Assembly (NCBI GenBank): GCA_965216305.1
Contig: OZ244144.1
Coordinates: 3,244,409-3,308,408, forward strand
Source of the DNA: Gammaproteobacteria bacterium
GTDB taxonomy: Bacteria; Pseudomonadota; Gammaproteobacteria; Ga0077536
Reading direction: 5' to 3'
Length of the DNA: 64,000 nt
Part shown: one piece after another, positions 7,578 through 55,750 of the stretch
Layout of the letters: the number at the start of each line of letters is the position of its first letter
How positions within the stretch are numbered: the stretch's first letter is position 1
Translations under genes and position numbers: made by a program
The notes under the pieces: model-generated
What the model saw: the letters and a program-made list of their open reading frames with translations, nothing else
Database searches by the model: none
Told to the model about the DNA's origin: nothing

Positions 7578-7720
7578 TCGTGTTCCACTCAAACCATCTG
7601 CACGACTCAAAGGGTTCACTGCGTACATACTTTCCACTATTCGGGGAGACATCTACGACGGTTGCGCCTCGTTCACTAATGAGCAAGCCTTCATCACCAA
7701 GCCGGCTCTTCCGGGCGAGA

Positions 7721-14836: not shown

Positions 14837-14852
14837 ACCGGGGATTGATTCT

Positions 14853-24362: not shown

Positions 24363-24781
24363 TTGTGCTCGCCGCGCCGGGTTGTCGGCACTTCTCCCGG
24401 CACGGCGTATTCCACTTGCTCGTAAAGCGTGAACGCCGTTGCGTAACCCGGTACCGGCGCGCGCAACGCGCCGGCCAGGTGCGGAAACACGTACATCACG
24501 AGCGTCGGATTCGGAAGCCTCGGAAAGAGGACATCGATCTCGTTGAATGCGTCACGCGTGTAACCGTACAGATCGCGCTCTCCTGATTGGATTGGGCGCG
24601 GGCCCAGGGACTGCCGGATCACTTCGGGCTTTTCGGCGTTCACTTGCCGGATATGCCGCGAGTAGATCATCGCCATCGTCGGCCCGTCCTGCGGCAACAC
24701 CGAATCCTTCGATCCGGCGCAGCCCGCGAGGGTGAGACTAATCAAGCCGAGCGTGATGCGTCGGATCAGTGGATTGTTCAT
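24359..24781 (-). CDS. Conjugative transfer region lipoprotein.
   Basis: From the ATG at 24781 the protein begins MNNPLIRRITLGLISLTLAGCAGS, a lipobox (LAGC). AGGAAA lies 8 nt upstream. The longer ORF-track extension overlaps the upstream gene. Confidence 0.7.
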   Translation of the reverse strand: MNNPLIRRITLGLISLTLAGCAGSKDSVLPQDGPTMAMIYSRHIRQVNAEKPEVIRQSLGPRPIQSGERDLYGYTRDAFNEIDVLFPRLPNPTLVMYVFPHLAGALRAPVPGYATAFTLYEQVEYAVPGEVPTTRRGEHK

Positions 24782-26132
24782 GCTTAAGTTTCCTGCCGGT
24801 TGTTTCGAAATCGATGGGGAGTTCGAGATCAACGTGGATGGCGACGGGAATGCCGGCCGGCACGAAAATCGCGTCAAAGCTCTGCGCCTGACGTTCGAGT
24901 AGCCATTTCGAGATCTCATCGGTGCCACCGGAGAACGTCTTGCCGAGCACGTACCGGCTCGAATCACCCGTCACGCTGTTCGTCACCCCGCCGGCGTCGG
25001 TTACGACCGAGGTTGTCTCGGCATTCGCCGCGGCTTCCGCCGCCGCCTGGATCGCCATTACGCCGATGCGCTGAGTCAGGAATGCCGGCGCGTTCGTTTT
25101 GCGCTCACCGGTGATGCAGGGGATCCCCCGCTCATCCGAGATCCAGCCGAGTGATTTGTCGGCGCCGCCTTGCTGGTTCTCGCGATCATCACCCGAGATC
25201 GTCCGGATCGTGCCGTCGTCAAAGACGAACGTGACCGAATCGAGGCGGCCCGTAACGCAGGACAGCGTCCAGTCACCGATCGCAGTCCCGCTCCAGACCA
25301 TGCCCTGGACCCCGGGCACACTCAGCCCGTTCGCGGCGAGATTCTCTGCACCCGTGATGATTTTGAACGGCATCGGATCGCGCACCTGGCCCTGCACCGG
25401 GATCCGCCCCACGAGCGCCGTCATGGCGGTTGAGCCAATCAACGTGGCGTTGCGCGGTACGGTATAGACGGGTCGTTCAGAAATTGCAGCATCAAAGAGA
25501 TTGCGTGTTGGATCAGACACGGCGTCGAACGTGTCACGCGTCGACTGCCCGGCGCGGCCCAACAGTCCATCGGGTTCCCCCAACGTCGCGGTGGTTTCCG
25601 CGCCGTCGAGGGGTTCAACCCAGATCACGTTGTCGGGCGACACCCCACTGGTCCAATCATCGAAACCCAACCCGACGGTTAGATCGCTCGGTCCCTGGGC
25701 CAACCGACTTTCGGTGAGCGCCTGCGACAGCGCGTCGACCCGCGCCGTCAACGATGACAGCACACCGGGTTCAAGTTGATCGCGGGCGCCATGATCGTTT
25801 TGGCGGGCAAGCAGTTTGCGCTGGACCCGGACCGCGACGTTCTCCTCGATCTGCTCCCGGTTCGCCAGCAGCTCGCGATTCTCCGTGTGTAATTGATCGT
25901 TGTTCTTCCGCAAGGCCTGCACCTCCGCGGTCATCGCGGCCACGTTCGCGGTCAGGGTTTTTATCGTGTCTGCAGGGCTGTCCGCGTCCGGCGAGGGTGC
26001 CTTCGGTACGGACTTGAGCGACTCCGACGCCAGGCGCTCGTCTGAACAGGATTTGAACGTCACGAATGCGAGGATTAACAGCACGCTGCCGGCGAGGATC
26101 GGCAGCAGTCGATTGGCGGTTGCGACGGGCAT
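24738..26132 (-). CDS. ICE mating-pair formation protein (PFL_4705-like, VirB10-like topology).
   Basis: An N-terminal TM helix, a coiled-coil segment (TLTANVAAMTAEVQALRKNNDQLHTENRELL) and a beta-rich C-terminal domain, in the conserved operon position. Confidence 0.7.
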   Translation of the reverse strand: MPVATANRLLPILAGSVLLILAFVTFKSCSDERLASESLKSVPKAPSPDADSPADTIKTLTANVAAMTAEVQALRKNNDQLHTENRELLANREQIEENVAVRVQRKLLARQNDHGARDQLEPGVLSSLTARVDALSQALTESRLAQGPSDLTVGLGFDDWTSGVSPDNVIWVEPLDGAETTATLGEPDGLLGRAGQSTRDTFDAVSDPTRNLFDAAISERPVYTVPRNATLIGSTAMTALVGRIPVQGQVRDPMPFKIITGAENLAANGLSVPGVQGMVWSGTAIGDWTLSCVTGRLDSVTFVFDDGTIRTISGDDRENQQGGADKSLGWISDERGIPCITGERKTNAPAFLTQRIGVMAIQAAAEAAANAETTSVVTDAGGVTNSVTGDSSRYVLGKTFSGGTDEISKWLLERQAQSFDAIFVPAGIPVAIHVDLELPIDFETTGRKLKHEQSTDPTHHARLD

Positions 26133-26140
26133 TGGTCGGC

Positions 26141-26938
26141 CTACCGTGCGACGTCGAACGGTCGTTTTGAGATGAGGTAAACCGCTGTGGTGTCGGCCTC
26201 ATCACCCTTCGGCAGCAACCGATGATGTTGAAACGTCGCGGTCACCCACTCTCCCCTGAGTTCCCTCGGGTCCAGGGTCTGGGCTTCCGGCGTTCGATTG
26301 GAAAGTTTCACGGCGGTGACATAGAACCCGTTCCCGCGCCAACCGACGAGGGGTACGGCTTCAACGGCGCCGCCATGGACCAAATCGAATGGCTCGTGCT
26401 CGATTGGAACGCGAACGACACCGGGTATCGAACTCGCCAGGCGTGATGGCGCGTAGAGTTGTCGGGCGGCGAATCGCGTAAGTTCGATGTATCCAGTTCG
26501 CCTTGGTGTCGGCTCATTACCGTTACGCGTCAGACCGTCGGCGTTTTCCGTCTGTTCGGCCACGAATATTCTGATCGGATCACCGGGCGCGCCCTTCTCC
26601 GCTGCCGTTAAATCAAAGAGGTAGATCCGACCGCTGCCAATCTCCCGAACCATGAGTCGACTGGCATCGAACGGCGCATTGGCCAATAGATAAACGGCCC
26701 CGTTTACGCTCTGCGTTCGGAGCAACGGTTGGATCGAACCCGGCACACCAACCTTGACCGCCGCGGGGAATTCGATCCGCTGTTCTTCGCCGACAACCAG
26801 CGGTACCTCGATAGGGACCTTCTGCCATTCGATCCGCTGAAGCGTGGCGGGCGCGGCGTAAACGAAAGAATGAAAGGCCAGTAGCGCAACCGAGAGACAA
26901 ACTGCGCTGAAGGCTCGGAAGGGATACGCTTCGTCCAT
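26141..26938 (-). CDS. ICE periplasmic protein (PFL_4704-like, VirB9-like position).
   Basis: From the ATG at 26938 the protein begins MDEAYPFRAFSAVCLSVALLAFHSFVYA (signal peptide). Conserved operon position. Confidence 0.65.
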   Translation of the reverse strand: MDEAYPFRAFSAVCLSVALLAFHSFVYAAPATLQRIEWQKVPIEVPLVVGEEQRIEFPAAVKVGVPGSIQPLLRTQSVNGAVYLLANAPFDASRLMVREIGSGRIYLFDLTAAEKGAPGDPIRIFVAEQTENADGLTRNGNEPTPRRTGYIELTRFAARQLYAPSRLASSIPGVVRVPIEHEPFDLVHGGAVEAVPLVGWRGNGFYVTAVKLSNRTPEAQTLDPRELRGEWVTATFQHHRLLPKGDEADTTAVYLISKRPFDVAR

Positions 26939-26957
26939 AACCGATCTCCGTTTGCGG

Positions 26958-27605
26958 CTATTGCGTTGCATCGGCGACCAGATCCGACTCATCCAGCCGG
27001 CGAGGACCCTCGGCAGCAAAACCGTCGAGCGCCAAACCCCACGGGTTTGCTTTCGCATCCACCGCCAGACGCACAACCCGTAGTGGATAACGGATGGCCG
27101 TCTTCTTTACCGTCATGCCTTTCACGGACTCGAGCAGGTCCAGGTCCAACCACACCACCCACACGCCCGGTGCCAGCACGTCTACCCGGCGCTCTTCGTA
27201 ACCGTGTCCGGCAATCTCGTGCACCCCACGCACCCGGTAGCTCAGCTCTCCCTGGCGACCTTTAAGCTCCATATCCGCAATCAGATCCGCGCGGTATCGG
27301 GGTGTGACATAAGGTGAGATCCGGAAAATGGCTTTGCCGTAGTCCTTGGCACCGTCCTCAGGCCAGCGGTTCAGTTGCTGAAACAGGTAGAACGCGAACG
27401 CATAAACATTCGCCGCCGGCACTTCGTCGACCGACAGCGTCGCGCCGGAACGAAGATCGGGCGGTACATGCACCGTCAATTGCTTGGGTGCCTGACTCCA
27501 GCCGAACCAGAGCACCGCAATAACGATGAACTGCAGTCCGATCACGACCCACAACGAACGCAGGTGAGCGCGGACGTTATCGATCTCGGTCCGGTAACGT
27601 CGCAA
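26958..27605 (-). CDS. ICE membrane protein (PFL_4703-like).
   Basis: A single N-terminal TM helix (LWVVIGLQFIVIAVLWFGW) and a conserved operon position. Confidence 0.65.
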   Translation of the reverse strand: MRRYRTEIDNVRAHLRSLWVVIGLQFIVIAVLWFGWSQAPKQLTVHVPPDLRSGATLSVDEVPAANVYAFAFYLFQQLNRWPEDGAKDYGKAIFRISPYVTPRYRADLIADMELKGRQGELSYRVRGVHEIAGHGYEERRVDVLAPGVWVVWLDLDLLESVKGMTVKKTAIRYPLRVVRLAVDAKANPWGLALDGFAAEGPRRLDESDLVADATQ

Positions 27606-27957
27606 CGCGAGTCCTCCCGATGTCCCACGTGCCGCTGCGCCTGATAAAGCGCGCCGGCCGAATGCCGAAATCAGCGAGCCAGATATGAACCCGCTGTTGG
27701 TAGTAACCGTCAGGACGACCGCGTTTCAGCCGTTGCAGGAGACCGGCCATCACAATCACCGTCCCAACGACCCCGACCCCGGCCAAACCGAACCCCATCG
27801 TGACCGCGCCCATCAGACCCGCAAGGACGAGGCTGACGGGCAACCAGACGAGCGCGGCCACAACGACGATGACGCCAAGCTCCGAGGAGGAACAGCCTTT
27901 GAAAATGGTCGGCTCCACATTGAGACGGTCGGCCAGAATGTCGTCGCGCTCGGTCAT
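27577..27957 (-). CDS. ICE membrane protein (PFL_4702/4701-like).
   Basis: Two hydrophobic helices and a conserved operon position. Confidence 0.6.
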   Translation of the reverse strand: MTERDDILADRLNVEPTIFKGCSSSELGVIVVVAALVWLPVSLVLAGLMGAVTMGFGLAGVGVVGTVIVMAGLLQRLKRGRPDGYYQQRVHIWLADFGIRPARFIRRSGTWDIGRTRVATLPDRDR

Positions 27958-27960
27958 CGA

Positions 27961-28311
27961 TTAGATAACGCCGGCGGCTTCGGTGAGCAGGAAGCTCGCA
28001 AAGATGAGTACGACCGCCCCGACAATTCCCAGGACCCCAACCTCGGCCCACTCGGCCTTGCCCTGTCGGGCCTCGTTGAACTTCGCGAATCCGAGATAGG
28101 CGACCCACAGGAAGCCGATCACAGCGATCGCCAATCCGAGGACCAGCCCACCGTCCTTGATGTAACCCTTGATGAGTCCAATCCAGTCGCCTGCCGCCGG
28201 TGCCGTACTGGGCGCGACGGGCGTCGGTAACGCAGCCCATACCGATTGCACAGTAGACATTGCAAGCAAACCGCCTCCCGTCGCCGCTCGTTTCATGCTT
28301 TTCTGCAACAT
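27961..28311 (-). CDS. ICE membrane protein, candidate conjugative pilin-like subunit.
   Basis: From the ATG at 28311 the protein begins MLQKSMKRAATGGGLLAMSTVQSVWA (signal peptide), followed by two TM helices. The ORF-track N-terminal extension is Cys/Arg-rich and implausible. Confidence 0.6.
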   Translation of the reverse strand: MLQKSMKRAATGGGLLAMSTVQSVWAALPTPVAPSTAPAAGDWIGLIKGYIKDGGLVLGLAIAVIGFLWVAYLGFAKFNEARQGKAEWAEVGVLGIVGAVVLIFASFLLTEAAGVI

Positions 28312-28393
28312 TGTTTTCTCTCCGAGATAACGGGGTTTCCCGTTGTTATGAAAATCGGGGTGCCCCGAGTCAACGCGACAGCAACCGATGGCC

Positions 28394-28624
28394 CTACCGC
28401 AGATAAAATCCCAGCACCATGAGCACGATGCTCGCGCGCAACGTGCTCCAGACCACGTCGAACAACACGATCTGACCGTTTTGCCACGCGCGAAATGTGC
28501 CAAGGCTTACCCAGATCAACCAGACGAAAACGAGCACCAGAATGACCGACGCAATCGCCGTCAGCAGCTTCTCCGGGGAAACGCCGGAACCCGCCTGGAA
28601 TGCTACGTTCTGAGCTGCGGTCAT
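28394..28624 (-). CDS. Small ICE membrane protein (76 aa).
   Basis: Two TM helices and a conserved position near the start of the mating-pair operon. Confidence 0.55.
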   Translation of the reverse strand: MTAAQNVAFQAGSGVSPEKLLTAIASVILVLVFVWLIWVSLGTFRAWQNGQIVLFDVVWSTLRASIVLMVLGFYLR

Positions 28625-28633
28625 GAGTTAACA

Positions 28634-28936
28634 TCACCGACGGTAATCACCGCGAAGCGGCGGAAACGTTCGAGGCTGTGACCGTGGCGCATCGATGTGT
28701 GCTTCGATTCCGAGCCGGACCTGCTTCAGATCCTGGCGCAACCAGTCGTAGTTGAATTTGATCCGGGCATCGGGATCAGCTTGAGACCGGGCTTTCTCGA
28801 TCAGCGGTTCGATCGCGACCAACTCATGAGTGATTCGCGCGAGCATCGCGCGCTCGCCGTCCGTGTCGGCTAGCGAGAATTCGATAGGAATGAGGCCTGC
28901 CAGCAGGCCTGGAATAAGCAAGGGTGCCTTACGCAT
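28634..28936 (-). CDS. RAQPRD-family ICE protein (first gene of the mating-pair operon).
   Basis: Signal peptide MRKAPLLIPGLLAGL and the motif DAPRSQPRTFPPLRGDY, a RAQPRD-like signature. Confidence 0.65.
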   Translation of the reverse strand: MRKAPLLIPGLLAGLIPIEFSLADTDGERAMLARITHELVAIEPLIEKARSQADPDARIKFNYDWLRQDLKQVRLGIEAHIDAPRSQPRTFPPLRGDYRR

Positions 28937-29408: not shown

Positions 29409-30023
29409 TCACCCAAGCGTTTTCTGAATATTCTGTCTCGCCGAGTCCGACAAGCCTCCGAGCTTTGCCAAATTATATCGCCGTTTAATATTTTTGCGGC
29501 CGAATACAGCCAGTAATGCAGTCCATAGCAATTCGCAAGATGACTCGATTCCCAACGGAATGGTTGGCCATGAGTCCTCAAACCCGAGGGGCAATGAGAA
29601 ACTTGTTTCCGTTTTGTCTCTGAGCGATTGACAGAATTGGATGTGATAGAAGTCGTGTTCCCCATCGCTCTGACTCGCGTCAAATTCGTAACATGACGGC
29701 GTTTCGAATCGCATTGCGGATTTATTTCGATCATCCCCAGCCGTGAAGATAGTTACAATTTGGGCGACGACTTCCCCTCTGGTGTTTGTCCTTGCTCGGA
29801 AAACGAACTGTACAGATCTATTCCCTTCACGATACGCAAGGACGTGCTGCCTCGATATTCCCATTTTCGGCGATGATCGAGCACTATCTATGATACTTTC
29901 GCTAACCCTCGGGAACCTCCAATCCATCGCATTTATGGACTCTCCAAAACTGTCAATATCTCTCCCTAAATCGTCCTGAACGGCGGTTAATAGTTCAAGG
30001 AAATCGTCCCAGTCGTTAGCCAT
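29409..30023 (-). CDS. Hypothetical protein (204 aa), last gene of the MTase/GHKL cargo operon.
   Basis: The ATG lies 12 nt after the upstream stop and is preceded by GGGGAG. AT-rich codon usage matches the three upstream genes. No motifs recognised. Confidence 0.65.
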   Translation of the reverse strand: MANDWDDFLELLTAVQDDLGRDIDSFGESINAMDWRFPRVSESIIDSARSSPKMGISRQHVLAYREGNRSVQFVFRARTNTRGEVVAQIVTIFTAGDDRNKSAMRFETPSCYEFDASQSDGEHDFYHIQFCQSLRDKTETSFSLPLGFEDSWPTIPLGIESSCELLWTALLAVFGRKNIKRRYNLAKLGGLSDSARQNIQKTLG

Positions 30024-30035
30024 TAGCTCCCCACG

Positions 30036-31259
30036 CTAGGTTAGCAGTCGGACCTTCGGCTTATACTCCACTTCAATGTTCCCACCGTCAGTCGGGGCAA
30101 CGAGATTTGTCGCAACGTACCGCAGTGGATAAGAAGTGGGAATGTCTGCTCGAAAACGATGACATTGATCGATCGGTCTAAAGCCCGACAAATCTTCACA
30201 GAATCCGAAATCGGGAGTATCGATGAGGTCCCCCATGATTTCTTCAAGGTCGACATTTTTTAGTTTCGCCCAATTCCACACGTCGCGGCCTAACCAGTCC
30301 TGATGCTCATATCGGGCTCCCTCTATATGTGGAGAGTATGTGTAAGTGTTTGTTGGCCTAGCTTCATCGTGAAGTCCACACAACTGCTCAGGGAAGTCTT
30401 CTAATGAAACGCCATTGAAAGCGCCCGGTGCGCGAGCGTACAAATGCGGTGCATCCACCAAGATATGCTGACCCGCAAGTACGAACTCCAACCACCTAGT
30501 GATCCGACTTTGTGCGACCAGTGCAATCCGAGAATCGGAAATTGTCGTTGGAGCGTCATCCCTCGTATAGCTGTCGCGGGTTTTTAAACCCATCGGCGAT
30601 TTCCGAACAAAGTCTCTGATCGATGCACTTTCATAGTCGGAGCCAAGTAGGTCGATATACGCTCTATCGAATTCCGAAATGATATCTCGTAACTCCAGTA
30701 CATCTAAAAGCGGGTCGCTTAGTTTGGTTTCGAGTTCTGCTGCTCTTCTCCGTGCAAGGATGCCCCGCCGGGTTAATAATGGCCATGACCAAGGCCGATA
30801 GCTTCTACCGTCTGATTGACTCCACAGCCTCGGGTTTCGAACGTCTTCGGCCGATACTGACAAGTCACTGAAAGATGTAAGCGATGGTCGAAGGGTTAGA
30901 TCGAAAGTGGGACTAGAGGGCCCTGAATTCAGCATAACAATCGCCCCAACGTCCGAATACCCTCGTGCTAAATACGCAACATCTTCACCTGTGAAAAATA
31001 CGTTGTCGTCATATTCCAGCAAATCAAAATCGATGAAGGCAAAAGCTGCTGAATCGAAAATTGATGGAGACTCGGTTTTGTCATTAGGCGAACGTGCATT
31101 CTTCCTTCGTTCTTCAAGTAGGGAAATTTCATTCCGGAAAGTTTCCTGATCTAACGGAACGATTTCATGATTTTTCGACACGAACTCTGGTAAGCTTTCG
31201 GATAACGAGTCCCGGAAATCTGTCTCGTCATCGATCAATAATAATTTCTGGTTTTCCAA
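30036..31259 (-). CDS. Receiver (REC)-like N-terminal domain protein with an uncharacterised C-terminal domain of about 270 aa.
   Basis: The TTG start directly abuts the TGA of the upstream gene. The N-terminus KLLLIDDETDF (acidic pair), AFAFIDFDL (candidate phospho-acceptor Asp) and GAIVMLNSG (Ser/Thr position) follow the CheY-like pattern. The C-terminal part has no recognised motif. Confidence 0.7.
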   Translation of the reverse strand: MENQKLLLIDDETDFRDSLSESLPEFVSKNHEIVPLDQETFRNEISLLEERRKNARSPNDKTESPSIFDSAAFAFIDFDLLEYDDNVFFTGEDVAYLARGYSDVGAIVMLNSGPSSPTFDLTLRPSLTSFSDLSVSAEDVRNPRLWSQSDGRSYRPWSWPLLTRRGILARRRAAELETKLSDPLLDVLELRDIISEFDRAYIDLLGSDYESASIRDFVRKSPMGLKTRDSYTRDDAPTTISDSRIALVAQSRITRWLEFVLAGQHILVDAPHLYARAPGAFNGVSLEDFPEQLCGLHDEARPTNTYTYSPHIEGARYEHQDWLGRDVWNWAKLKNVDLEEIMGDLIDTPDFGFCEDLSGFRPIDQCHRFRADIPTSYPLRYVATNLVAPTDGGNIEVEYKPKVRLLT

Positions 31260-33440
31260 TCAACGCTCCCACGAAACCATAACGCACGTCTTAAAACCAT
31301 CGTCTGGCTCGACAAAATTACAATCAACGCCAAGACCGCCACACAGCAGGCGAACTATAGCCAAGCCCATCCCCGCGCCTCCCGCGCCAAGCGCTCTCCT
31401 GCTATCGCTAAGTGATACTCGTCTAACGAAAGGCTCGAACAACTCCTCTGCAGTCTCCAAGTTCACTCCAACGCCTACGTCTTGTACGAAAATCTGACCC
31501 GTGTTTTCGTCTGCATAAGACGAAATAGAAATTGTCTTCGTTTCGGAATTGGCCACCGCATTAGCCGCATTGATTAATAGGTTCTGGAAAACCGAACTCC
31601 ATTCAGCATATGTGCCAATTGGTAACTTAAGCGAGCTCGATAATCCTTCAAGGTCTGGCTTAATGCCCCGAAGATATACTCGAGATTGGCTTATCGTTTC
31701 CTCAAGTAGCGAATGAGCCTTCATCGAAACGCGCTCTAAGCGGTTTTCTTCATCCATTAGCGGAGCAAATATTGCTCTTGTATCCTGTGAATGTTGAACC
31801 CAAGTCTTGATGTTCGCAGCGACATGGTTCAATTCATCCAGATCGTTATCTCTCGCCAATCTTTTGAGTTGCGTAGCGATTCGCGACAGTTTTCTGTATT
31901 GTTTTACAGCCTCATGCTCGAATGCGATTGCGCTGATTCCTGCCGTCGCAAGAGCCCCGAGCAAACTCTGTTCCTGCCGGATAATCTCCGATCTCGCCCC
32001 CTCTGCCTTGGCGACTTTCATCAGCTGTCTATGCACCGCGCCATAAACAGGCTCAGGGATCACATCTTGCGCCTCGCGTACTAGCTTTAACACCGAATCA
32101 ACAGTAACAGTCCCAGACGATTCGATTCTTTCAAGAGATTTGGATGCTTGCCTCAGTCGCCGACGAGTTTGCTCCATCGCGTATAGATCGATTCCTATGC
32201 GTACGGTTTTCGCGAGCGATTTGTATGCGCTGTTGTTGAGGAGGCGGTCTCGAGTCACCGCGATCGAGAGTATTTCATCTGGCGACGATATGTCGCCCCT
32301 GCTGCGAAACTCCTGGCCGGTGTCAATATGAACTTCCCCAAGCATGCGAGTTTGCGTGGGAAGATTATTCATCCCATCGGTCTCTTGAAGCGAACTGGGC
32401 AGTAACTTCGATTTGCTTAAACGATGCGAATGGTCTTCCTCGATATTCAACCAGTCGGTTTCAAGTCCATAACTTGAGAGTCCAAAGCCAGAATCAAAGA
32501 TTCGGACGCCACCGTGATGATCCATGTATTCTCGGAGCTCGCGCACCTTGATGCCTAGTGGTTGCCTCCCGACGAAATCGAAAATGAGAATATCAAATTG
32601 CACGTATCCTAGGTGACAATCCTCAAGCAGGAACTCTTTGCTTATTTTCCCGCGCGGATTTTGAAATTCGATTTTGAGGTGTAGCCTACGGCTCTTGTCT
32701 AAATCAGAAGGGCGTGATTCTACAAGCCTACCCGTGATGCGCGCGTGCCAAACGGAATCAAGGATGTTCATCACGTTAGAGAAGCTTTCGGCGGCACCCG
32801 GCGACACGCCCTCAAGGTCTACGCTAAACGTACCTAGCCGGTCTACATTATCTGCGCGGAGCGGGGGAGACAGTTTCCAAATATCTCGGGCAAGGTCCTT
32901 AAATTGACGCTGGGAATCCCAGCTATGAATTAAACCTCCAATCTCTAACCTGAAACCGGATTTTGATCCTAGGTATTCAAAACCGTCATCGCGATATTCG
33001 AAATCAGCTTCGGCTTCTTGTAGATCTTCGGATTCAATTGCGTCATCCCAGTCGATTTCAACGAATAGCTCCCGGTTTTCTCTCCTAGAAGTTGTGGAAA
33101 GCTTTAACGTTCGCCCCAAGTATTGAACGGCTAATCTCCCCACTCCTTTGGACCCGGTGAGTGGCCTCTTGTATTTGGGCGAACTTAAGGATTTTTGTTT
33201 GTGAGGGCTGCCCACTTTCATCCAGTAATCCCTAAATTCGGAAATTGTCATTCCGCTACCGTTGTCTTCGACAATCAGGCTGTTTTTCTCGAACCTTACG
33301 GATACTTTGGTGGCATCCGCGTCATACGCGTTTTTGATCAATTCTCCGACCGCGAGAGCTGGAGATCCAACTAAGCGTTCCCCGAGCTCCCTCAGCAGGG
33401 CGGCCGAGGCCGAGAAATGGAATTTTCCTTTGTTCGTCAT
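31260..33440 (-). CDS. Dual GHKL-fold ATPase: an N-terminal MORC/MutL/Hsp90-like ATPase module plus a C-terminal histidine-kinase-like module.
   Basis: N-terminal Bergerat motifs: ELIKNAYDADA (N box), VEDNGSGM (G1) and GSKGVGRLA (G2). C-terminal set: NLLINAANAV (N box), VQDVGVGV (G1), FEPFV (F box) and GAGGAGMGLAIV (G2). A candidate H-box, AIAFEHEAVKQY, lies about 130 aa upstream of the second N box. ATGA overlap with the MTase stop. Confidence 0.85.
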   Translation of the reverse strand: MTNKGKFHFSASAALLRELGERLVGSPALAVGELIKNAYDADATKVSVRFEKNSLIVEDNGSGMTISEFRDYWMKVGSPHKQKSLSSPKYKRPLTGSKGVGRLAVQYLGRTLKLSTTSRRENRELFVEIDWDDAIESEDLQEAEADFEYRDDGFEYLGSKSGFRLEIGGLIHSWDSQRQFKDLARDIWKLSPPLRADNVDRLGTFSVDLEGVSPGAAESFSNVMNILDSVWHARITGRLVESRPSDLDKSRRLHLKIEFQNPRGKISKEFLLEDCHLGYVQFDILIFDFVGRQPLGIKVRELREYMDHHGGVRIFDSGFGLSSYGLETDWLNIEEDHSHRLSKSKLLPSSLQETDGMNNLPTQTRMLGEVHIDTGQEFRSRGDISSPDEILSIAVTRDRLLNNSAYKSLAKTVRIGIDLYAMEQTRRRLRQASKSLERIESSGTVTVDSVLKLVREAQDVIPEPVYGAVHRQLMKVAKAEGARSEIIRQEQSLLGALATAGISAIAFEHEAVKQYRKLSRIATQLKRLARDNDLDELNHVAANIKTWVQHSQDTRAIFAPLMDEENRLERVSMKAHSLLEETISQSRVYLRGIKPDLEGLSSSLKLPIGTYAEWSSVFQNLLINAANAVANSETKTISISSYADENTGQIFVQDVGVGVNLETAEELFEPFVRRVSLSDSRRALGAGGAGMGLAIVRLLCGGLGVDCNFVEPDDGFKTCVMVSWER

Positions 33441-34468
33441 GGATCCTGCGGCATGTCTTGGAGCTGCTCCCCGATTGCTTTAGCCAAACCCGGTGGCACA
33501 GCATTTCCGATCAGTTTCGCCACCCTGCTTAAGCTGAATTCTTTTCCGGGGGGGTGGAATTCGTAGCCCTCCGGAAAGCTCTGAAGGAGAGCTGCCTCCC
33601 TCAGTGATATGCATCGATCCTGATCAGGATGACCGAATCGGCCAGATCCATAATTGAATGATTGAGTAGTGATAGTCGGTGCGGGAGCGTCCCAACTCAT
33701 TCGACCGTAGACTGGCGTGTACTTTGTACCCTCGCCTTGCTTGTGGCATTCGAGAAGAAGATTCTTCGGCCAGTCTTTCCAACTGCCCGCCGGACGCGAG
33801 CTGCGGATTCTCTGCAGATTAATCGCCGTCAATCCGGCGGATCTGTGCAATGGATCGTCGTCACTGGTTTCGCCGGCCGCTATTGCAGGCAGCGAGCCGA
33901 TCACATCTCGCACAGAAATTTCTATGCCTTGCGGTTTCAACGGTTGAATCGAGCCACTCCGCCTAGCGAGCAGCACAAGTCTTTTCCGGTGTTGCGGTAC
34001 CGCAAACCTGGAACAATCGACTACGTCAAACCAAACACTGTACTTGGCCGCATTTAGGCCGGAAAGGAAATTAGCAAATTCATTGGATTTTCGAAGGTTC
34101 GGCACATTTTCCATCGTGACGACGTCGGGCAACACCTCAAGTACTAGCTGAGCGAATTTCTTTACTAATCGCCATCGCCCTGATCGGCTACGCCCCTGCT
34201 TGTTTGTCAGGCTTGAATATTTTTGACAGGGGGCGCACCCAGCAATCATTCGGGGCGATTTACCTGAAAAATTGGCGCTCAACTCAGAGGCCGTCAGTGT
34301 CATGATGTCACGCAGGTAAAATTTGGACGTTACGTTTGATTCGTACGCGAATTGACAATCGGGGTCATTATCATATCCAGCGACTACCGCTAATCCAGCT
34401 TTCTTCAAGCCGAACGACAATCCACCCGCTCCGCAAAATAGGTCAACTACTTCCACACATTCCACCAA
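33437..34468 (-). CDS. dcm: DNA (cytosine-5) methyltransferase, first gene of the cargo operon.
   Basis: Motifs present: VDLFCGAGG (I), GCAPCQKYS (IV), ENVPNL (VI), QHRKRL (VIII), QSFPEGYEF and GNAVPPGLA (X). Confidence 0.92.
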   Translation of the reverse strand: MVECVEVVDLFCGAGGLSFGLKKAGLAVVAGYDNDPDCQFAYESNVTSKFYLRDIMTLTASELSANFSGKSPRMIAGCAPCQKYSSLTNKQGRSRSGRWRLVKKFAQLVLEVLPDVVTMENVPNLRKSNEFANFLSGLNAAKYSVWFDVVDCSRFAVPQHRKRLVLLARRSGSIQPLKPQGIEISVRDVIGSLPAIAAGETSDDDPLHRSAGLTAINLQRIRSSRPAGSWKDWPKNLLLECHKQGEGTKYTPVYGRMSWDAPAPTITTQSFNYGSGRFGHPDQDRCISLREAALLQSFPEGYEFHPPGKEFSLSRVAKLIGNAVPPGLAKAIGEQLQDMPQDP

Positions 34469-34856: not shown

Positions 34857-35591
34857 CTATAAGTACTTCTTGAACGTACTGGCCGTAATGGCTATGGCCG
34901 TCGCAAAGAACATTGCAAACGGCAACACGATTACGGTCGGATGCAGACTGAACGGTAAAGCGAGATAGGTAACCCAGGTCATCACCACGAGGGGTATCAT
35001 GGCCTTCTTCGCATAGTGATACACGAAGGAACTCTCGCGACCTCCGCCCCAACGGCGCAAATCGCGTTGTACGAGACCGTCGATCAGGCCGAGGAGACTG
35101 AACAATAAAAATACCGGCATTGCCAGGGTCAGGATCGCAAGTCGTACGGAGAAGACCCCCGTCACCTGCATCATCGCAATGACAAATTCGGCAATCGGCG
35201 CATACATTGCGTGCAAGGCAGATCGCATCCCCCGTTCGCTTTGTTCCGGCGAGGCGGATGCCCAGCGAGCCAGATCGATTAAGCGCGTCGCTTCGAAGAG
35301 TACATAATGAGTTTTGTTCGCGACACCTCTCGCGAACTGCACAGGGTCTGACGTGACCATGCTCCGGGCAAACTCGCTATCGAGATAACTGATCTCGTTT
35401 GCGAGCATCGCTCGACTATGTTCTACGCCCTCTTCCGGCCACCAGAACACCATACCGACCCATTCAATCAGTATTGAGAAGACGAGCGAAAATATCAGCC
35501 ACAGAATGGCGGTTCCTGCTGCAGTGAAGCAGCGTGAAACAATCCCACCCTGGACCGCGCGTCGTCGCGGGTCAGAGGCTTGCTCGGCCAT
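34857..35591 (-). CDS. ICE membrane protein (PFL_4697-like), downstream of traD.
   Basis: Four to five TM helices. Overlaps the traD stop by 20 nt. Conserved ICE position. Confidence 0.7.
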   Translation of the reverse strand: MAEQASDPRRRAVQGGIVSRCFTAAGTAILWLIFSLVFSILIEWVGMVFWWPEEGVEHSRAMLANEISYLDSEFARSMVTSDPVQFARGVANKTHYVLFEATRLIDLARWASASPEQSERGMRSALHAMYAPIAEFVIAMMQVTGVFSVRLAILTLAMPVFLLFSLLGLIDGLVQRDLRRWGGGRESSFVYHYAKKAMIPLVVMTWVTYLALPFSLHPTVIVLPFAMFFATAIAITASTFKKYL

Positions 35592-37683
35592 TACGCGCTA
35601 TTGATGCGTCGGTCGATACAGTACTGTCCCCGACCGACGTCCACCACGCCTTCTCGGACCGGTACCAGTGATCGTTCGTGATATAGGTGCGTTCCATCTC
35701 GTTCGCGATCACCGCGAGTGATTCCGGCATGTCCGGATCCGAGGACGGCAGCGGCATTCGGATCTTCCACAACTGGCCGCCCTCCAGCAATGCGAACGCC
35801 TGGCCTTTCGGCAGGGTGATGAGCTCCGCCGGCGTCAACATCGGCACTTCAGAGACACTGATCCGATCTTCGTTACGGGACTTGAAATCGACCCCTGATC
35901 CAGGCTCCGATGAATCATCCACGCCGGAGACGCTCATCAAGCTGAACACCTCGACGCTCGGGAGTTGCTCGGTCAACATCTCCGCAGTCGCGAGTTCCTT
36001 AACCCGAAGCATGATCAACGTATTGAAGTTGCCGGCTACCTGCCCTGCTTTCGCCTGGTTACCGATCCGCGCTTCGACGTCCGACCAGGTCTGGGTATAG
36101 GCGGTCACCTGGAACCCGGCGCCACCGGCTTTATTCAACAGCGGGATAAACTCATCCCCGATGAGTTCGTTGAACTCGTCGGCGTGCATCGAGATCGTCG
36201 GCGGCGGTGCATTCGCCTCACCGGAAACGCCGTGCTTATAGATGTGGCCCGCGACAGAAACGAGATCGGCAAACATTGAATTACCGACCGCGCCCGCGAC
36301 AGTGGTGTCGGTCAGCGCATCAAGCCCCACGTAAACGATCCCCTTATTTCGGATCACGTCCATCCACTCGAAAATCGGCCGCGATTCGGTTTCATCCAGG
36401 TAGTTCGGGGAGATCAGTTCGGCGATATTGCCGGTTGTGAGCTTCTCCATCAGTGGTCCGACCGAACTGACGATTTTGTCGAAGTAGGTCTTGTCGTATT
36501 TAAACGCCGACACCAGTCCGTCGAGGACCGGATCGTAGAAGTCCTGGCTCTGGACATAACGCATCAACGCGATAGCTTCGACGTTTCGGCCACGCAGCGC
36601 AGCGGGAAGGTTACGTTCGCTGGTCTTGCCGAGTTGCGCGTCGACCTGCACTTTCCAATCCGGCGCACCGTGCCGAGCGAGATAGTCTCTCGTGTACTCC
36701 ACGAACAGCGGCTCGATATCGTTGATGTAGCGTCGCACCTGCTGGTAGTCGGGGCGCCGTTTGAGCGCGACCAACGCCCGCGCGATGATATTTACAAAGC
36801 GCCACGCGAATTCCTTGAACGCTGCCGAATTGCCTTCGCCGGGCAGTTGATTCGCGATCCGGGTCGCTACTTCGGTGATCCTCGAAAAATTACCGATCGC
36901 GTTGTAACGGGCGGAAACCTCCGGGAATCCGAGGTGGAACAGCGTGAAATCCCTGGCGCGGCCTGCACGCTTCGCTTCCACGTAAACCCGCCGCAGTAGA
37001 TCCGCGTCCCCTTTCGGGTCGAAGACGATCACGACGTCGCCGCGTCGGATGTCCTGGGTGATCAGGATTTCAGCGAGACGCGTCTTGCCGACCCGCGTGG
37101 TACCGAGCACGAGGGTATGACCCACCCGCTCGGCGTTGTCCATCCACACATCCTGTTCTTCGAGCTCAACGGCATGTATCGCCGGCTTCCCGCCAACGGC
37201 AGGCAACGGCGAGAGCGGATTCCACCACGCCCGTGTTTGGATTAGATGAGCTACCCAACCGAGCATTGCTGTCGATTCCCAGGCAACTTCTTTTCGACGG
37301 GCCCATCGATAGAGCGCACCGGGTTGCACGTAGCGTTGCACTTCCGGTCGCAGGGTGTCGCGCAACCGTTGGGTATGTTTCTGGCTCCAGCGGAAGCCTT
37401 TCCCCAGAAAGAGTTTGCGACGACTAAGCGGGATCCGGGTTGACGGGATCTGATAGGTCGGCAGTTGCCGCATGTTGCGTTGGTAGCGCAGCACCCGGAA
37501 TGCCTGCCGGGCACGTATCGAGCCCATCACGATGAGCGCGGCACCGGCACCGTACGCGACCCCGGGCGGCATAAACAGCGCCCAGGGAGCAAGTATGGCG
37601 ACCGCCGCTGCCGCGTAGGCTGCCAGCGTCGACCAGAGTTCGACCGGCGGCCGCAACAGGGCCTCAATTGGATGGGTGCTCAC
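35572..37683 (-). CDS. traD: Conjugative coupling protein TraD (T4CP), ICE class.
   Basis: N-terminal TM helices. Walker A is LVLGTTRVGKTRL and the Walker B region is DVVIVFDPKGD. 703 aa. Confidence 0.9.
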   Translation of the reverse strand: MSTHPIEALLRPPVELWSTLAAYAAAAVAILAPWALFMPPGVAYGAGAALIVMGSIRARQAFRVLRYQRNMRQLPTYQIPSTRIPLSRRKLFLGKGFRWSQKHTQRLRDTLRPEVQRYVQPGALYRWARRKEVAWESTAMLGWVAHLIQTRAWWNPLSPLPAVGGKPAIHAVELEEQDVWMDNAERVGHTLVLGTTRVGKTRLAEILITQDIRRGDVVIVFDPKGDADLLRRVYVEAKRAGRARDFTLFHLGFPEVSARYNAIGNFSRITEVATRIANQLPGEGNSAAFKEFAWRFVNIIARALVALKRRPDYQQVRRYINDIEPLFVEYTRDYLARHGAPDWKVQVDAQLGKTSERNLPAALRGRNVEAIALMRYVQSQDFYDPVLDGLVSAFKYDKTYFDKIVSSVGPLMEKLTTGNIAELISPNYLDETESRPIFEWMDVIRNKGIVYVGLDALTDTTVAGAVGNSMFADLVSVAGHIYKHGVSGEANAPPPTISMHADEFNELIGDEFIPLLNKAGGAGFQVTAYTQTWSDVEARIGNQAKAGQVAGNFNTLIMLRVKELATAEMLTEQLPSVEVFSLMSVSGVDDSSEPGSGVDFKSRNEDRISVSEVPMLTPAELITLPKGQAFALLEGGQLWKIRMPLPSSDPDMPESLAVIANEMERTYITNDHWYRSEKAWWTSVGDSTVSTDASIARNGRASL

Positions 37684-38207
37684 TGTTCGATGGCGTGTGG
37701 GGAAATCAGTACCGGGTAGTGCGTCAGACTTAAGGCCTTTGCGATGTCACTCGCGGAGGCCGGCAGGATGGGCAGCCCGCGTGCCAATTCGATAGTCACC
37801 TTGAGATCGCCCACGGTCTCTGCCTGTACGAGCATGCCGACAGCGCCGATTTCGTGTAGTCGCGGCTGGTTTTTCTTTAACCAGCGCCAGGAACGGGGAT
37901 CGGAACCGACCAGAAAGAACGGGCGCGTGAACGCGCGCTGATGCGATCGCGTCTCGACCGGTCCCGGCGTTAACCCGGGAGATCGGATCGGCAGCCAGGT
38001 GTCCGGATCGGCCGCACCGATAGCGGGCTTATCAGTCACCGGCGATTCCGGCATTGCGTCCTCCGCGTCAAACGGTTCAAGATACGGAGCGATGGGCTCA
38101 GTCCGACCGGTGTCGGCAATGACGGTGAGCGCGGCATGTGTCGAAACCGACGCGAGCAAACAACACAGCGAAAAAATCCAAAACCACGCCCGTGCAGACC
38201 GAACCAT
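37680..38207 (-). CDS. ICE periplasmic protein (PFL_4695-like).
   Basis: Signal peptide MVRSARAWFWIFSLCCLLASVSTHA. ATGA coupling to traD. Confidence 0.65.
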   Translation of the reverse strand: MVRSARAWFWIFSLCCLLASVSTHAALTVIADTGRTEPIAPYLEPFDAEDAMPESPVTDKPAIGAADPDTWLPIRSPGLTPGPVETRSHQRAFTRPFFLVGSDPRSWRWLKKNQPRLHEIGAVGMLVQAETVGDLKVTIELARGLPILPASASDIAKALSLTHYPVLISPHAIEQ

Positions 38208-38210
38208 CGG

Positions 38211-38759
38211 TTACCCGCCGTTCTCGATCTGCTGCAACCGGGCGATGACACGCTCACGGTACCGTGCGGCTCTATCCGGATCCGACGGCGCATGATAGCA
38301 ACCGACACTCACCATCCAATCACGTGCGTTGGTCGCGCAGGCTTTCAGGATTGCCGCCCCCACCGCCAGGTTGTAATACGGATCGAGCGCCTGCCAGGCG
38401 GTACCCAATCGATGTTTGTGATATCGCCAGTTAACCTGCATCAGACCGATATCAATCGACCGCCGCCCTGCTTCGAGCCAGCCCGCTAAGGCACGCCAAG
38501 CCGCTACCCGGGACTCAAAATAGTAGCCTTGCCCTGCCACGTTCAGCGTCCACGGCCACGGGCGAAGCGCATTCGAATACCCGAGCGCCCTTCCGCTCTC
38601 GGTGAGGGCGACGGCATAAAGCAATGGGCCCGGGATCCCAAACGCAGCTGCCGTAGATTCGTATCTTGGCGGGATCGGCCCGCGGCTCGAGGCAGCGTCC
38701 GGAAGAAGCACCAGCGACAGGACCAATAGCCCTGTCGTATGACGATTGAATTGCCCCAC
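38211..38759 (-). CDS. Lytic transglycosylase (SLT domain) of the ICE.
   Basis: LYAVALTESGR (catalytic Glu context) and DIGLMQVN motifs. Signal peptide. Confidence 0.8.
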   Translation of the reverse strand: MGQFNRHTTGLLVLSLVLLPDAASSRGPIPPRYESTAAAFGIPGPLLYAVALTESGRALGYSNALRPWPWTLNVAGQGYYFESRVAAWRALAGWLEAGRRSIDIGLMQVNWRYHKHRLGTAWQALDPYYNLAVGAAILKACATNARDWMVSVGCYHAPSDPDRAARYRERVIARLQQIENGG

Positions 38760-38762
38760 CGG

Positions 38763-39536
38763 TTACAGCGCCGAAACGTCGATAGGCGCCACGTGGTCGC
38801 CGTGTCGGCGGAAGACCATCGGCAGATCGGCCGTACTGGTCGCCAGCTTCGCCAACGCACCACCGTCGTGATTCAACGTCACGCGACGGGACCGGACCCA
38901 TTCGGGGTCGATGTCGTGCGTCGCTGCCCAGGTCCTGACGGTCGCGTCGTCGTTGGCATCGAGACCCACCAAATAGATATCGATCCCGGCGACCGCATCG
39001 ATGCGCCCGAGCAACGTCGCTACGAGGGCGTCGCAGGCCGAACACCCGGGGGCTGCAAAAAACAGCAGGCGATCGGTATCGAGATAGTCGGCATTTTTAT
39101 CAGTTTGTTGCGGCAGCCGATTCACATCGATCAACGGATCGTCCGGGTATAGACGCTTCACTGCCGCGTCGTAAGCATGCTGAAACGCAAGGATCCGATC
39201 GACATCATCACGCATCGCTTGTGCCCAGAGCTCCGCATAACGCCGGCGCTCTGCCTCATTGCGCGCGTGGATCCCGAGCACCTCGATCGGTGATATCGTC
39301 GCGGGACTGATACTTCCGCGGATCCCCTGCATCAGGCTTTGATAGCGTTGCCACTCCGTCGCCGATAAGGTCCACAGCTTCGCGCGCGTGTGTTCTGTTT
39401 CTGAAAGCCGACTCATAGTGGTTGAGGATTCATTTGTGCCGGTTTTTGGTGCGGGCGAGTTAACGTGCTCGCCCGCAAACGCCGCTGGCAGTCCCAACAG
39501 TGTGATCACCGCGATCACGGGTTTCAGATCACTCAT
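38763..39536 (-). CDS. ICE thioredoxin-fold/DsbA-like periplasmic protein (PFL_4693-like).
   Basis: From the ATG at 39536 the protein begins MSDLKPVIAVITLLGLPAAFA (signal peptide). CxxC motif in FFAAPGCSACDALV. Confidence 0.65.
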   Translation of the reverse strand: MSDLKPVIAVITLLGLPAAFAGEHVNSPAPKTGTNESSTTMSRLSETEHTRAKLWTLSATEWQRYQSLMQGIRGSISPATISPIEVLGIHARNEAERRRYAELWAQAMRDDVDRILAFQHAYDAAVKRLYPDDPLIDVNRLPQQTDKNADYLDTDRLLFFAAPGCSACDALVATLLGRIDAVAGIDIYLVGLDANDDATVRTWAATHDIDPEWVRSRRVTLNHDGGALAKLATSTADLPMVFRRHGDHVAPIDVSAL

Positions 39537-39662
39537 TATTCGAGCCTTCTTTCGCACGTTCGATTCGACACCGTTCAGGGTCGGATGCGCATCATTCCAG
39601 AATGCCGACACCGGCTGAACGGATAACGACTTCAAGACGATGCGGGGTTTCCACGACGACAA

Positions 39663-40529
39663 TTACGTGCCCAAGTAGACGCTCGAGATTTGACGACGGG
39701 CGTGTCCGAGTTCCTCGCTGATAGTTTGACGCGCCACGCGGTCCAAGACTTTCTGACCGGGACTGAGCGTCCTGGTCGCGGGCCCGGCCGCCGCCGGCGG
39801 TTTCCACCCGGTGAGGTCTTCGTATCGGCGCTGTGCGTAGGCGTGTCGCAAGCCATGAAGTTTTGATAACCCGGCATTGCTCGTTTGCCGCTCATAGAGA
39901 CGCAGTTGCTGGACGTACGTGCGTTCACTTGGAATAAGGGACCCGGTGCCTGCGAGCAATCGCGCCCGGTGGAGTACGGCGCGTTGTTCATCCGTCCTTA
40001 CCGGCACATCGCGCTCACGCCCGCCCTTGGTCCAGCTCGATTTCAGCGTGATGTGATCGCCACGGTCCGCGAAACTCGGCGTGAACTTGATCGCCTCCTC
40101 CCGACGCAGACCGAATGCCTGCTGCAGTGCGAGACTCATCCGGACGTAGGGATCCTCGATATTCTCAAGATCCCGCGTATCCACAGTCCGCGCCCTGGAC
40201 TCGTTCGTCACGAACTGTCGATCCGGGATCCCGTAATTCTCGTTAGATCGTGCGACGACGTTCTGCTTGTCTACCTTCTCCGCCCACCAACGCAGAACCG
40301 CCATCCGGTTCTTAATGGTTCCGATGGCGAGATCCTGCTGCAGCCACCCTTTCACCAAACTATCGACATGCTTCGGCTTCAGCGATCTCGCCTTCATCCC
40401 GCGGAAGCCGGCATCGTGTAACTGGTTCGCGATCAACATCAGGTGATGCATTCGCTTACTCTGCGTGACATAGCTGCCGTCACGATTGCGGCGGCAGAGT
40501 TGCTTAAGTTGGTAGTTCAGATCTCTCAC
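39663..40529 (-). CDS. Tyrosine-recombinase-fold protein internal to the ICE (Integrase_1-like).
   Basis: GLRREEAIKF (Arg), HGLRHAYAQRRY (His-x-x-Arg) and a C-terminal SSVYLG (Tyr). The N-terminus resembles the ICE/phage integrase N-terminal SAM-like domain. Confidence 0.7.
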   Translation of the reverse strand: MRDLNYQLKQLCRRNRDGSYVTQSKRMHHLMLIANQLHDAGFRGMKARSLKPKHVDSLVKGWLQQDLAIGTIKNRMAVLRWWAEKVDKQNVVARSNENYGIPDRQFVTNESRARTVDTRDLENIEDPYVRMSLALQQAFGLRREEAIKFTPSFADRGDHITLKSSWTKGGRERDVPVRTDEQRAVLHRARLLAGTGSLIPSERTYVQQLRLYERQTSNAGLSKLHGLRHAYAQRRYEDLTGWKPPAAAGPATRTLSPGQKVLDRVARQTISEELGHARRQISSVYLGT

Positions 40530-55603: not shown

Positions 55604-55677
55604 AGCAATTCTGTGCCCCAAACCGCGTTCTGTGCCCCACCTGGATATTTATCCAGTACATAAGCCTCTGAAAGGTA

Positions 55678-55750
<73 letters not shown>

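Follow-up and report, generated by a model that had tools for sequence, protein, structure and literature searches.

A MORC/MutL-type ATPase fused to a histidine kinase, encoded with a cytosine methyltransferase, a receiver-like protein and a third conserved protein on an integrative conjugative element

We analyzed 64,000 nucleotides of a genome assigned to Gammaproteobacteria bacterium (assembly GCA_965216305.1, contig OZ244144.1, forward-strand positions 3,244,409 to 3,308,408; this whole stretch is referred to as the window, and positions are counted from its first letter). The gene under study, P0001, encodes a single soluble protein in which a MORC/MutL-like ATPase head is fused to a complete histidine kinase. 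It belongs to a cassette of four genes, all on the minus strand, in the order C5 cytosine methyltransferase (P0003), dual-GHKL kinase (P0001), receiver-like protein (P0002) and a small third protein, X3 (P0006). We favor, with a probability of roughly 0.6, the reading that this cassette is a restriction-modification-like defense (or addiction) module under the control of a His-Asp phosphorelay. The double-ATPase kinase architecture has already been published, and the P0001 clade is an uncharacterized, deeply branching variant of it. A previous sequence-only reading of P0001 had missed both this precedent and the cognate receiver, which is encoded by the next gene. Coordinates of all features are collected in Table 1.

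The sequence-only reading had proposed that one polypeptide carries two full GHKL modules, and this proposal held: Pfam assigned two separate and genuine ATPase folds, both far above their gathering cutoffs, namely HATPase_c_3 (PF13589) at the N terminus (residues 28–135, 84.5 bits, E 9e-24) and HATPase_c (PF02518) at the C terminus (residues 616–719, 67.6 bits, E 1.6e-18). All of the motifs it had quoted are present. In the N-terminal module these are ELIKNAYDADA (residues 33–43), DNGSGM (59–64) and GSKGVGRLA (96–104); in the C-terminal module they are NLLINAANA (620–628), DVGVGV (654–659), FEPFV (668–672) and GAGGAGMGLAI (685–695). Against NCBIfam, residues 8–133 aligned with positions 2–130 of the model for the BbrUII/HgiDII GHKL restriction enzymes (NF050001, E 3.7e-22), and this model found no match beyond residue ~135. 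The N terminus also resembles MutL and the sacsin-type ATP-binding domain (E 3e-8 for the latter), while the C terminus resembles many sensor kinases, among them PhoR, RstB, CpxA and EnvZ (E ~1e-11). A profile search of PDB sequences matched the catalytic (CA) domain to AdeS and CpxA at E 4e-10 to 1e-9. Within PADLOC, the N-terminal GHKL domain matched two REase_II models and the kinase half matched no model below E 0.02. The Pfam scan placed no HisKA-type model on P0001. The protein has no transmembrane segment, as had been proposed (the maximum Kyte-Doolittle mean over 19 residues is 1.52).

To gauge conservation, we relied on a word-indexed search of 5.8 billion proteins, which gave 1,853 matches to P0001; the best 120 of these are all full length (99–100% coverage, 40–54% identity, 716–776 residues) and carry both Pfam domains. 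We aligned 40 full-length homologs of 40–54% identity and counted the columns identical in all 40. In the N-terminal module these were E33, K36, N37, D40, D59, G61, G63, G96, K98, G99 and G101, and in the C-terminal module Q619, N620, N624, N627, D654, G656, G658, F668, P670, F671, G687, G688, G690 and G692; the nucleotide-binding boxes of both modules are thus invariant. Further columns without variation lie in the middle region (G310, G311, D316, G318, F319, Y324, G325, D329, W330, E334, H337, S338 and R397-D398-R399, together with R340), part of which forms the pattern GGVxxxDxGF..YG..DW. H509 and E510, in an 'AxEHE' box that lies within the segment AIAFEHEAV (residues 504–512), were likewise identical in 40/40 sequences. 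A separate profile scan of genome contigs with the P0001-family alignment, which was swamped by generic kinase patterns (the G2 box), found only three distant full-length relatives.

The AlphaFold2 model of P0001 has a mean predicted local distance difference test score (pLDDT) of 81. It begins with the GHKL domain, continues with a beta-rich region up to about residue 400 (pLDDT mostly 80–95), and then forms helices at residues 404–442, 447–456, 463–531 and 534–556, followed by an alpha/beta domain at 575–725. The helix 463–531, which bears H509, folds back onto the return helix 534–556 directly ahead of the catalytic domain, so that residues ~404–556 are modeled as a helical stalk and a hairpin like the dimerization and histidine phosphotransfer (DHp) domain. 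The sequence-only reading had offered a transducer domain or a DHp hairpin for the center of the protein, and the model places both there in succession. It had also named FEHE as a candidate phospho-acceptor in a helical region ahead of the second module, which agrees with the position of the invariant His-Glu pair on helix 463–531.

Structure comparison gave the same division of the protein. The top Foldseek matches in the PDB were YF1 (4gcz), an EnvZ chimera (4kp4), CpxA and HK853, at E ~1e-9 over 225–260 columns, which correspond to DHp plus CA; FixL was also among the kinase cores that resemble this third part of P0001. For the N-terminal half, Foldseek found the ATPase module of SMCHD1 (474 columns), TopoVI-B (586) and HtpG (440). 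These alignments run well past the GHKL domain and support, at the level of the model, a transducer-like beta-rich domain at residues ~140–400. When the family profile was compared with PDB sequences, CpxA matched profile positions 473–705 (E 1.4e-9), FixL chimeras 471–681 and HK853 514–708, with kinase-core matches overall (CpxA, FixL, HK853 and EnvZ) at E 1e-9 to 6e-6; MutL, PMS2 and MORC3 matched profile positions 25–81.

The product of the next gene, P0002, was modeled with a pLDDT of 86 and a predicted template modeling score of 0.89. D10 and D11 come directly after strand beta1 (residues 4–9) and D77 closes beta3 (71–77), and in the model these are the positions of the acidic pocket and the phospho-acceptor of receiver domains. 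The best Foldseek matches of P0002 are the receiver domains of XynC, RcsB, Rcp1 and Spo0A (probability 0.97–1.0, E ~0.01, ~115 columns). Across 33 aligned homologs of 30–35% identity, D10 and D77 are invariant and D11 and D79 nearly so. The C-terminal domain is a confidently modeled mixed alpha/beta fold with invariant D269, H272, R276, E355, D356, S358, R380 and Y399, as well as W256, W322 and W328, in the same 33 sequences. P0002 was unmatched in Pfam, NCBIfam, PADLOC, PHROGs and a PDB sequence search, and Foldseek searches of the PDB and of viral structures (BFVD) with the P0002 model gave only receiver or chance matches, none of which assigns the C-terminal domain. We considered reading the C terminus as PD-(D/E)xK (PTD...EVEYK) and rejected this, since the residues concerned are not conserved in the family. 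Homologs of P0002 also occur in archaeal metagenome-assembled genomes.

The third protein, X3, forms a large family of its own. A profile built from seven X3 sequences found 1,035 representatives (clusters at 50% identity) at E ≤ 1e-3 in a library of 1.84 billion proteins, 744 of them at E ≤ 1e-10. All are 147–338 residues long, lengths that give no sign of fusions. In 60 representatives, R105, E107, H123, H127, Q129 and P153 are invariant, and the consensus reads RFETP...HxYYHxQ. X3 has no relative in Pfam or the PDB, nor any in PHROGs or PADLOC; in PADLOC, neither P0002 nor P0006 matched a model below E 0.02.

The kinase, the receiver protein and X3 are strictly co-inherited in the loci examined. 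Hidden Markov models (HMMs) of the three families matched three consecutive genes in 8/8 loci of the clade: the window, Hyalangium (L001), Bradyrhizobium (L003), a metagenome contig (L004), three genomes of the window's phylum (L097–L099) and a Mycolicibacterium plasmid (L103). These loci thus span Pseudomonadota, Myxococcota, an actinobacterial plasmid and metagenomes. In the metagenome contig, the X3 homolog (11292–12173), which the family HMM matches at E 3e-68, overlaps with the receiver gene's end and had been missed by the public gene call, so automated annotations under-report X3. A C5 methylase adjoins the trio or lies within a few kilobases of it in each locus examined, sometimes with Vsr fused or adjacent. 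The clade is present in few of the 401 genomes sampled from the phylum; counting more distant relatives, 7 of them had a match at E ≤ 1e-20, a sporadic distribution. Genes near the homologous loci encode GmrSD, HEPN, ApaLI restriction-modification, ParDE, resolvase, Mrr and HNH/HNH_2 proteins, which are typical of defense or mobile islands. Of note, in one of the three genomes of the phylum (L098, 2954–4846), genes for an Mrr_cat restriction endonuclease and an HNH_2 protein directly follow the trio.

In the window, the four genes are packed tightly. The methyltransferase stop overlaps the kinase ATG by 4 nt, in agreement with the earlier claim that a DNA methyltransferase adjoins the kinase gene; the kinase stop abuts the P0002 start with a gap of 0 nt; and 12 nt separate P0002 from the X3 gene, with a GGGGAG Shine-Dalgarno sequence 6 nt ahead of its ATG. 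This spacing indicates translational coupling of the four genes. P0003 matched the PADLOC DrmMII/MTase_II models at E 1e-77 to 4e-78. Library scans of the four open reading frames found no match to helix-turn-helix (HTH), N6_Mtase or HNH families, and two small open reading frames flanking the cassette had no match in NCBIfam. The cassette has a GC content of 49%, versus 59–61% on both flanks, and is inserted between the TIGR03747 and RAQPRD genes of an integrative conjugative element (ICE) of the ICEclc/PFL_4669 type. Upstream of it lie TraD and TIGR03747, and downstream RAQPRD, TIGR03745, TIGR03750, TIGR03746, TIGR03749, TIGR03752 and TraC. We conclude that the cassette is horizontally mobile cargo of this element.

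The published precedent is a purely computational study by Bellieny-Rabelo, Pretorius & Moleleki 2021 (Genome Biol Evol, PMC8011034), which took as its starting point a Pectobacterium protein that carries the two HATPase domains PF02518 and PF13589 and described the architecture HATPase_c_3 + HEF_HK + HATPase_c. The authors reported 91.6% linkage of the HEF_HK kinase to a receiver-like gene, Response_reg_2, with C5 methylases, Vsr and type II restriction-modification genes over-represented nearby, and they put forward a paraMORC-derived, two-component-like system of the cytoplasm, for which they suggested sensing of nucleoside triphosphates (PMC8011034). P0001 shares with HEF_HK proteins the order of HATPase_c_3, a DHp-like His-Glu helix and HATPase_c in a soluble protein (PMC8011034). 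The systems also have in common a receiver-like next gene with no other known domain, a C5 methyltransferase upstream, often a Vsr gene nearby, and a sporadic occurrence.

We do not count P0001 as a HEF_HK member in the Pfam sense, because neither Pfam family was detected. PF19191 (HEF_HK) missed P0001 in the whole protein, in residues 481–628 (E ≤ 10) and when the genome was searched in six frames at this locus, while true members used as controls scored 95.8 and 30.2 bits. PF19192 (Response_reg_2) did not match P0002 or five of six tested counterparts at E ≤ 10; the partner of L009, a relative described below, gave a weak 16.9 bits, and true partners gave 101 and 51 bits. Homology is instead supported by BLASTP and HMM bridges. 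BLASTP aligned residues 8–119 and 497–723 of P0001 with the true HEF_HK protein L088 (the latter segment at 774–987), placing 'FEHEA' on 'HHEF'. L009, an Ignavibacteria protein of 712 residues whose own PF19191 score barely attains the threshold, shows 24% identity to residues 9–697 of P0001, with 'THEF' on 'EHEA'. The P0001-family HMM matched related kinases at E 1e-23 to 1e-73, with true HEF_HK members at E ~1e-23. On these comparisons the homology of P0001 to HEF_HK proteins is clear.

There are also differences from true HEF_HK systems. In L088 and L089 the kinases have 993–1003 residues and the partners 555–617, versus 726 and 407 here; the P0001 clade has an obligatory third protein, X3, unlike HEF_HK systems; and the Thr and Lys conserved in Response_reg_2 are not invariant in the P0002 family. 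When the P0002 family was compared with the partners encoded at L088, L009, L013 and L005, the hhalign probability was below 3% (below 1% for the HEF_HK partner). Judged by hhalign and HMM comparison, partners of different clades share the receiver start alone, with no detectable relationship between their output domains. A maximum-likelihood tree of 26 dual-GHKL kinases grouped the P0001 clade with 100/100 support at the end of a long stem; two Bacteroidota/unclassified proteins are its sisters, and HEF_HK proper, L009, L100/L102 and L101 lie across from it; because the branches are long, the deep order of the tree is uncertain. We also observed that, in L089 (11415–12751), the true HEF_HK system is followed by genes for Vsr and a NOV_C protein (DUF3883, PD-(D/E)xK); NOV_C is the nuclease domain of the GHKL defense protein Tiamat.

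Other known systems share parts of this design. The paraMORC and prokaryotic MORC GHKL-S5 ATPases of restriction-modification systems were described by Iyer, Abhiman & Aravind 2008 (PMC2292703). Like P0001, these proteins and the BbrUII/HgiDII enzymes have intact Bergerat motifs, followed by a domain that in P0001 is predicted to be transducer-like, and they are associated with cytosine methylases and Vsr; unlike P0001, they carry or recruit nucleases or helicases, with no histidine-kinase core described, and no kinase fusion is mentioned in PMC2292703. An analogous system, presumably a distant relative, with an experimentally established function is Ambrosia (AbrR-AbrA-AbrB-AbrC-AbrD) of P. 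aeruginosa, which acts against phages and consists of an XRE regulator, an N6 methylase, a kinase/Hsp90-like ATPase, a receiver bearing a wHTH (winged helix-turn-helix) and an HNH nuclease (bioRxiv 10.1101/2025.09.30.679545). Ambrosia defense was lost whenever one of the predicted catalytic residues was mutated, the receiver Asp60 among them (10.1101/2025.09.30.679545). Ambrosia and the cassette have in common a DNA methylase, a soluble histidine kinase/Hsp90-like ATPase and a receiver protein in one operon. The cassette differs in that it lacks an XRE regulator and an HNH protein, its methylase is of the C5 and not the N6-adenine type, and its receiver bears no wHTH; the C-terminal domain of P0002 and X3 stand where Ambrosia has the wHTH and the HNH nuclease.

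We compared Ambrosia itself by description, and at the sequence level through an Ambrosia-like locus, L101, in a genome of the same class as the window. This locus has the Ambrosia gene order minus the XRE gene. Homology of its kinase to P0001 extends along the full length (23% identity, P0001-family HMM E 1e-51), while its receiver was undetected by the P0002 family HMM. The HNH gene of L101 indicates that a classical nuclease is possible as an output within the dual-GHKL superfamily. Direct use of a His-Asp phosphorelay against phages is also said to occur in Detocs, which reportedly comprises a kinase (DtcA), a buffer receiver (DtcB) and a receiver-effector (DtcC). Like the cassette as we propose it to work, Detocs reportedly has a receiver fused to an enzymatic effector; unlike the cassette, it is said to have no methylase and no MORC-like module, another sensor domain and an effector of the purine-nucleoside-phosphorylase type. 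We considered MADS as a further match and rejected it, because its 'histidine kinase' is merely a flanking marker gene.

We postulate the following sequence of events for the cassette. The N-terminal ATPase clamp would dimerize on ATP and read a cytoplasmic cue, most plausibly DNA that lacks the cassette's own cytosine methylation or another mark of invading DNA. The reading of this cue would govern autophosphorylation at H509, carried out by the C-terminal CA domain, and the phosphate would then move from H509 to D77 of P0002. Phosphorylated P0002 would turn on its own C-terminal domain, alone or together with X3, as the effector, and the methylase would mark self DNA. That the N-terminal module may sense DNA or nucleotides and drive the kinase had been suggested by the sequence-only reading, and the same proposal was made for HEF_HK systems (PMC8011034). 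Defense as the function is supported by the defense or mobile surroundings of homologous loci, by the HNH gene that follows a short receiver in the sister variant L101, by the block of phages in Ambrosia and by the published tie of the same architecture to restriction-modification (PMC8011034). For the output, we tentatively consider that the C-terminal domain of P0002 and X3 constitute a phospho-activated effector that acts directly and not through transcription, a form of 'restriction by signal transduction'; we hold this part to be possible, at less than even odds. If it were true, the clade would represent a new class of phospho-activated defense enzyme, spread over roughly a thousand lineages of bacteria and archaea, if not more.

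Several observations weigh against a phosphorelay-gated defense module. The T/N at the His+4 position is missing from the kinase, and in P0002 neither the Thr/Ser that ends beta4 nor the Lys after beta5 is invariant (K/R occupies the likely Lys position in some three quarters of the sequences). The receiver is therefore atypical, and the combination of a receiver lacking an invariant Thr and Lys with a kinase lacking the His+4 T/N means that the phosphorelay may be non-canonical. AlphaFold2 confidence for the DHp region of P0001 is only 59–72, a level to be expected when a dimeric bundle is modeled as a monomer, and when HMMER aligns P0001 with CpxA, H509 falls some 20 residues to the N-terminal side of the H-box of CpxA; since the residue register with CpxA is offset in the helices, our assignment of the His is not based on that alignment. 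No recognizable nuclease or other effector chemistry was found, the C-terminal domain of P0002 and X3 matching nothing. Finally, the authors of the Ambrosia study favor transcriptional control over direct activation of an effector, and methylation by Ambrosia gave phages no protection (10.1101/2025.09.30.679545), so the step in which methylation marks self may not transfer to the cassette.

Among the alternatives, transcriptional two-component control survives best, although we consider it unlikely. The kinase would sense infection and phosphorylate P0002, which as a transcription factor would turn on the cassette or other genes, and killing or restriction would be done elsewhere. Such control was proposed for Ambrosia, in which AbrC has a wHTH and reporter genes of the cluster are induced on infection (10.1101/2025.09.30.679545), and the regulators RcsB and VpsT, which join a receiver to an HTH, are among the Foldseek matches of P0002 (~149 and 114–119 columns, respectively). 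However, no HTH or wHTH family was found in P0002 by Pfam, NCBIfam or PDB profile searches, and its C-terminal domain, a mixed alpha/beta fold of 250 residues, has a set of invariant polar residues of the kind seen more typically in enzyme sites. Moreover, the cassette holds no separate nuclease gene to regulate, and X3 is inherited strictly together with the other two proteins.

Slightly less probable still is a scaffold in which the C-terminal half of P0001 is a pseudo-kinase, serving as a constitutive dimerization and ATP-binding module in the manner of the C-terminal dimerization domains of MutL and Hsp90. P0001 would then clamp DNA, driven by ATP, and would recruit P0002 and X3 through protein contacts. 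The receiver without its canonical Thr and Lys and the kinase without the His+4 T/N phosphatase motif fit this picture, as does the fact that GHL ATPases require a C-terminal dimerization domain (background in the Tiamat preprint); the closest N-terminal relatives of P0001 are, moreover, single-chain GHKL restriction enzymes (the BbrUII/HgiDII family). Against it, H509-E510 and the ATP boxes of the CA domain are invariant in 40/40 sequences, and D10 and D77 of the receiver persist at 30–35% identity, which is hard to explain without catalysis; in addition, the receiver Asp is essential in Ambrosia (10.1101/2025.09.30.679545). We regard as the least probable alternative a non-defense role, as an epigenetic or regulatory module whose kinase keeps watch on the host chromosome's methylation status or nucleotide pools and not on invaders, or as a post-segregational 'addiction' module that stabilizes the ICE: the cassette does sit within the ICE transfer genes (TIGR03747 to RAQPRD), restriction-modification modules are known as selfish stabilizers and sensing of nucleoside triphosphates was suggested by the 2021 authors (PMC8011034), but the trio also occurs outside ICEs, in chromosomal defense-type islands and on plasmids, and addiction and defense are compatible roles that do not exclude one another.

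The cassette raises the question of how a MORC/MutL-type ATPase can provide a histidine kinase with its input domain, and what the output of the P0001 clade is. In place of a recognizable nuclease, the clade carries two conserved families with no counterpart in Pfam, the PDB, PADLOC or PHROGs. The clade is large, with at least 120 full-length kinase clusters and about 1,000 X3 representatives across many bacterial phyla. Because current defense-finder models miss it, one wet-lab characterization would annotate many genomes, and it would also bear on whether cytosine-methylation status can be read through a phosphorelay.

Table 1 Coordinates of the cassette, its predicted domains and related features. 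Positions refer to the window, except for L101, which lies in another genome.
Feature	Position	Strand	Size or residues	Basis or content
P0003, C5 cytosine DNA methyltransferase, first cassette gene	33437..34468	-	343 aa	PF00145 E 2.9e-51, TIGR00675
P0001, dual-GHKL soluble histidine-kinase-like protein	31260..33440	-	726 aa	ATG start
P0001 N-terminal MORC/MutL-type GHKL ATPase domain	33036..33359	-	residues 28-135	HATPase_c_3
P0001 beta-rich middle (transducer-like) domain	32241..33035	-	residues ~136-400	AlphaFold2, Foldseek, invariant columns
P0001 DHp-like helical hairpin	31773..32054	-	residues 463-556	AlphaFold2 helices, invariant H509-E510
P0001 candidate phospho-acceptor codon	31914-31916	-	H509	codon checked
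P0001 histidine-kinase catalytic (CA) GHKL domain	31266..31718	-	residues 575-725	HATPase_c
P0002, receiver-like partner	30036..31259	-	407 aa	AlphaFold2, Foldseek
P0002 receiver fold	30840-31259	-	residues 1 to ~140	D77 codon 31029-31031
P0002 C-terminal domain			residues ~150-407	fold without match
X3 (P0006), small conserved partner	29409..30023	-	204 aa	family HMM
Core ICE transfer genes, first block	16824-28936			TraG_N, TraC, TIGR03752, 03749, 03746, 03750, 03745, RAQPRD
Core ICE transfer genes, second block	34857-40529			TIGR03747, TraD (TIGR03754), PFL_4695
C5 methyltransferase of the second system	13053-14393	+		PF00145 E 1.8e-80
Vsr mismatch endonuclease	~14399-14614	+		sole Vsr of the genome
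MvaI/BcnI-family restriction endonuclease	14772-16262	+		E 6.6e-41
L101, Ambrosia-like locus in a genome of the same class	5535-10369			N6 methylase, 763-aa dual-GHKL kinase, 214-aa receiver (Asp61), 209-aa HNH

The ICE carries a second, conventional restriction-modification system as cargo on the plus strand (13053–16262). The dual-GHKL cassette has no Vsr of its own and may rely on the Vsr of this system. A tRNA-Thr(CGT) at 55677–55751 may mark an attachment end. The window also contains three very large open reading frames: one of 1667 residues at 2574–7577 (+), with no Pfam match; one of 824 residues at 93–2567 (+), with just weak coiled-coil-type matches; and one of 1401 residues at 59766–63971 (-). 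A stretch of low GC content (52%) at 8703–12531 (-), which encodes a 657-residue AMP-binding (adenylate-forming) enzyme, a 286-residue protein without a family and a transposase-like HTH protein, is probably further cargo.

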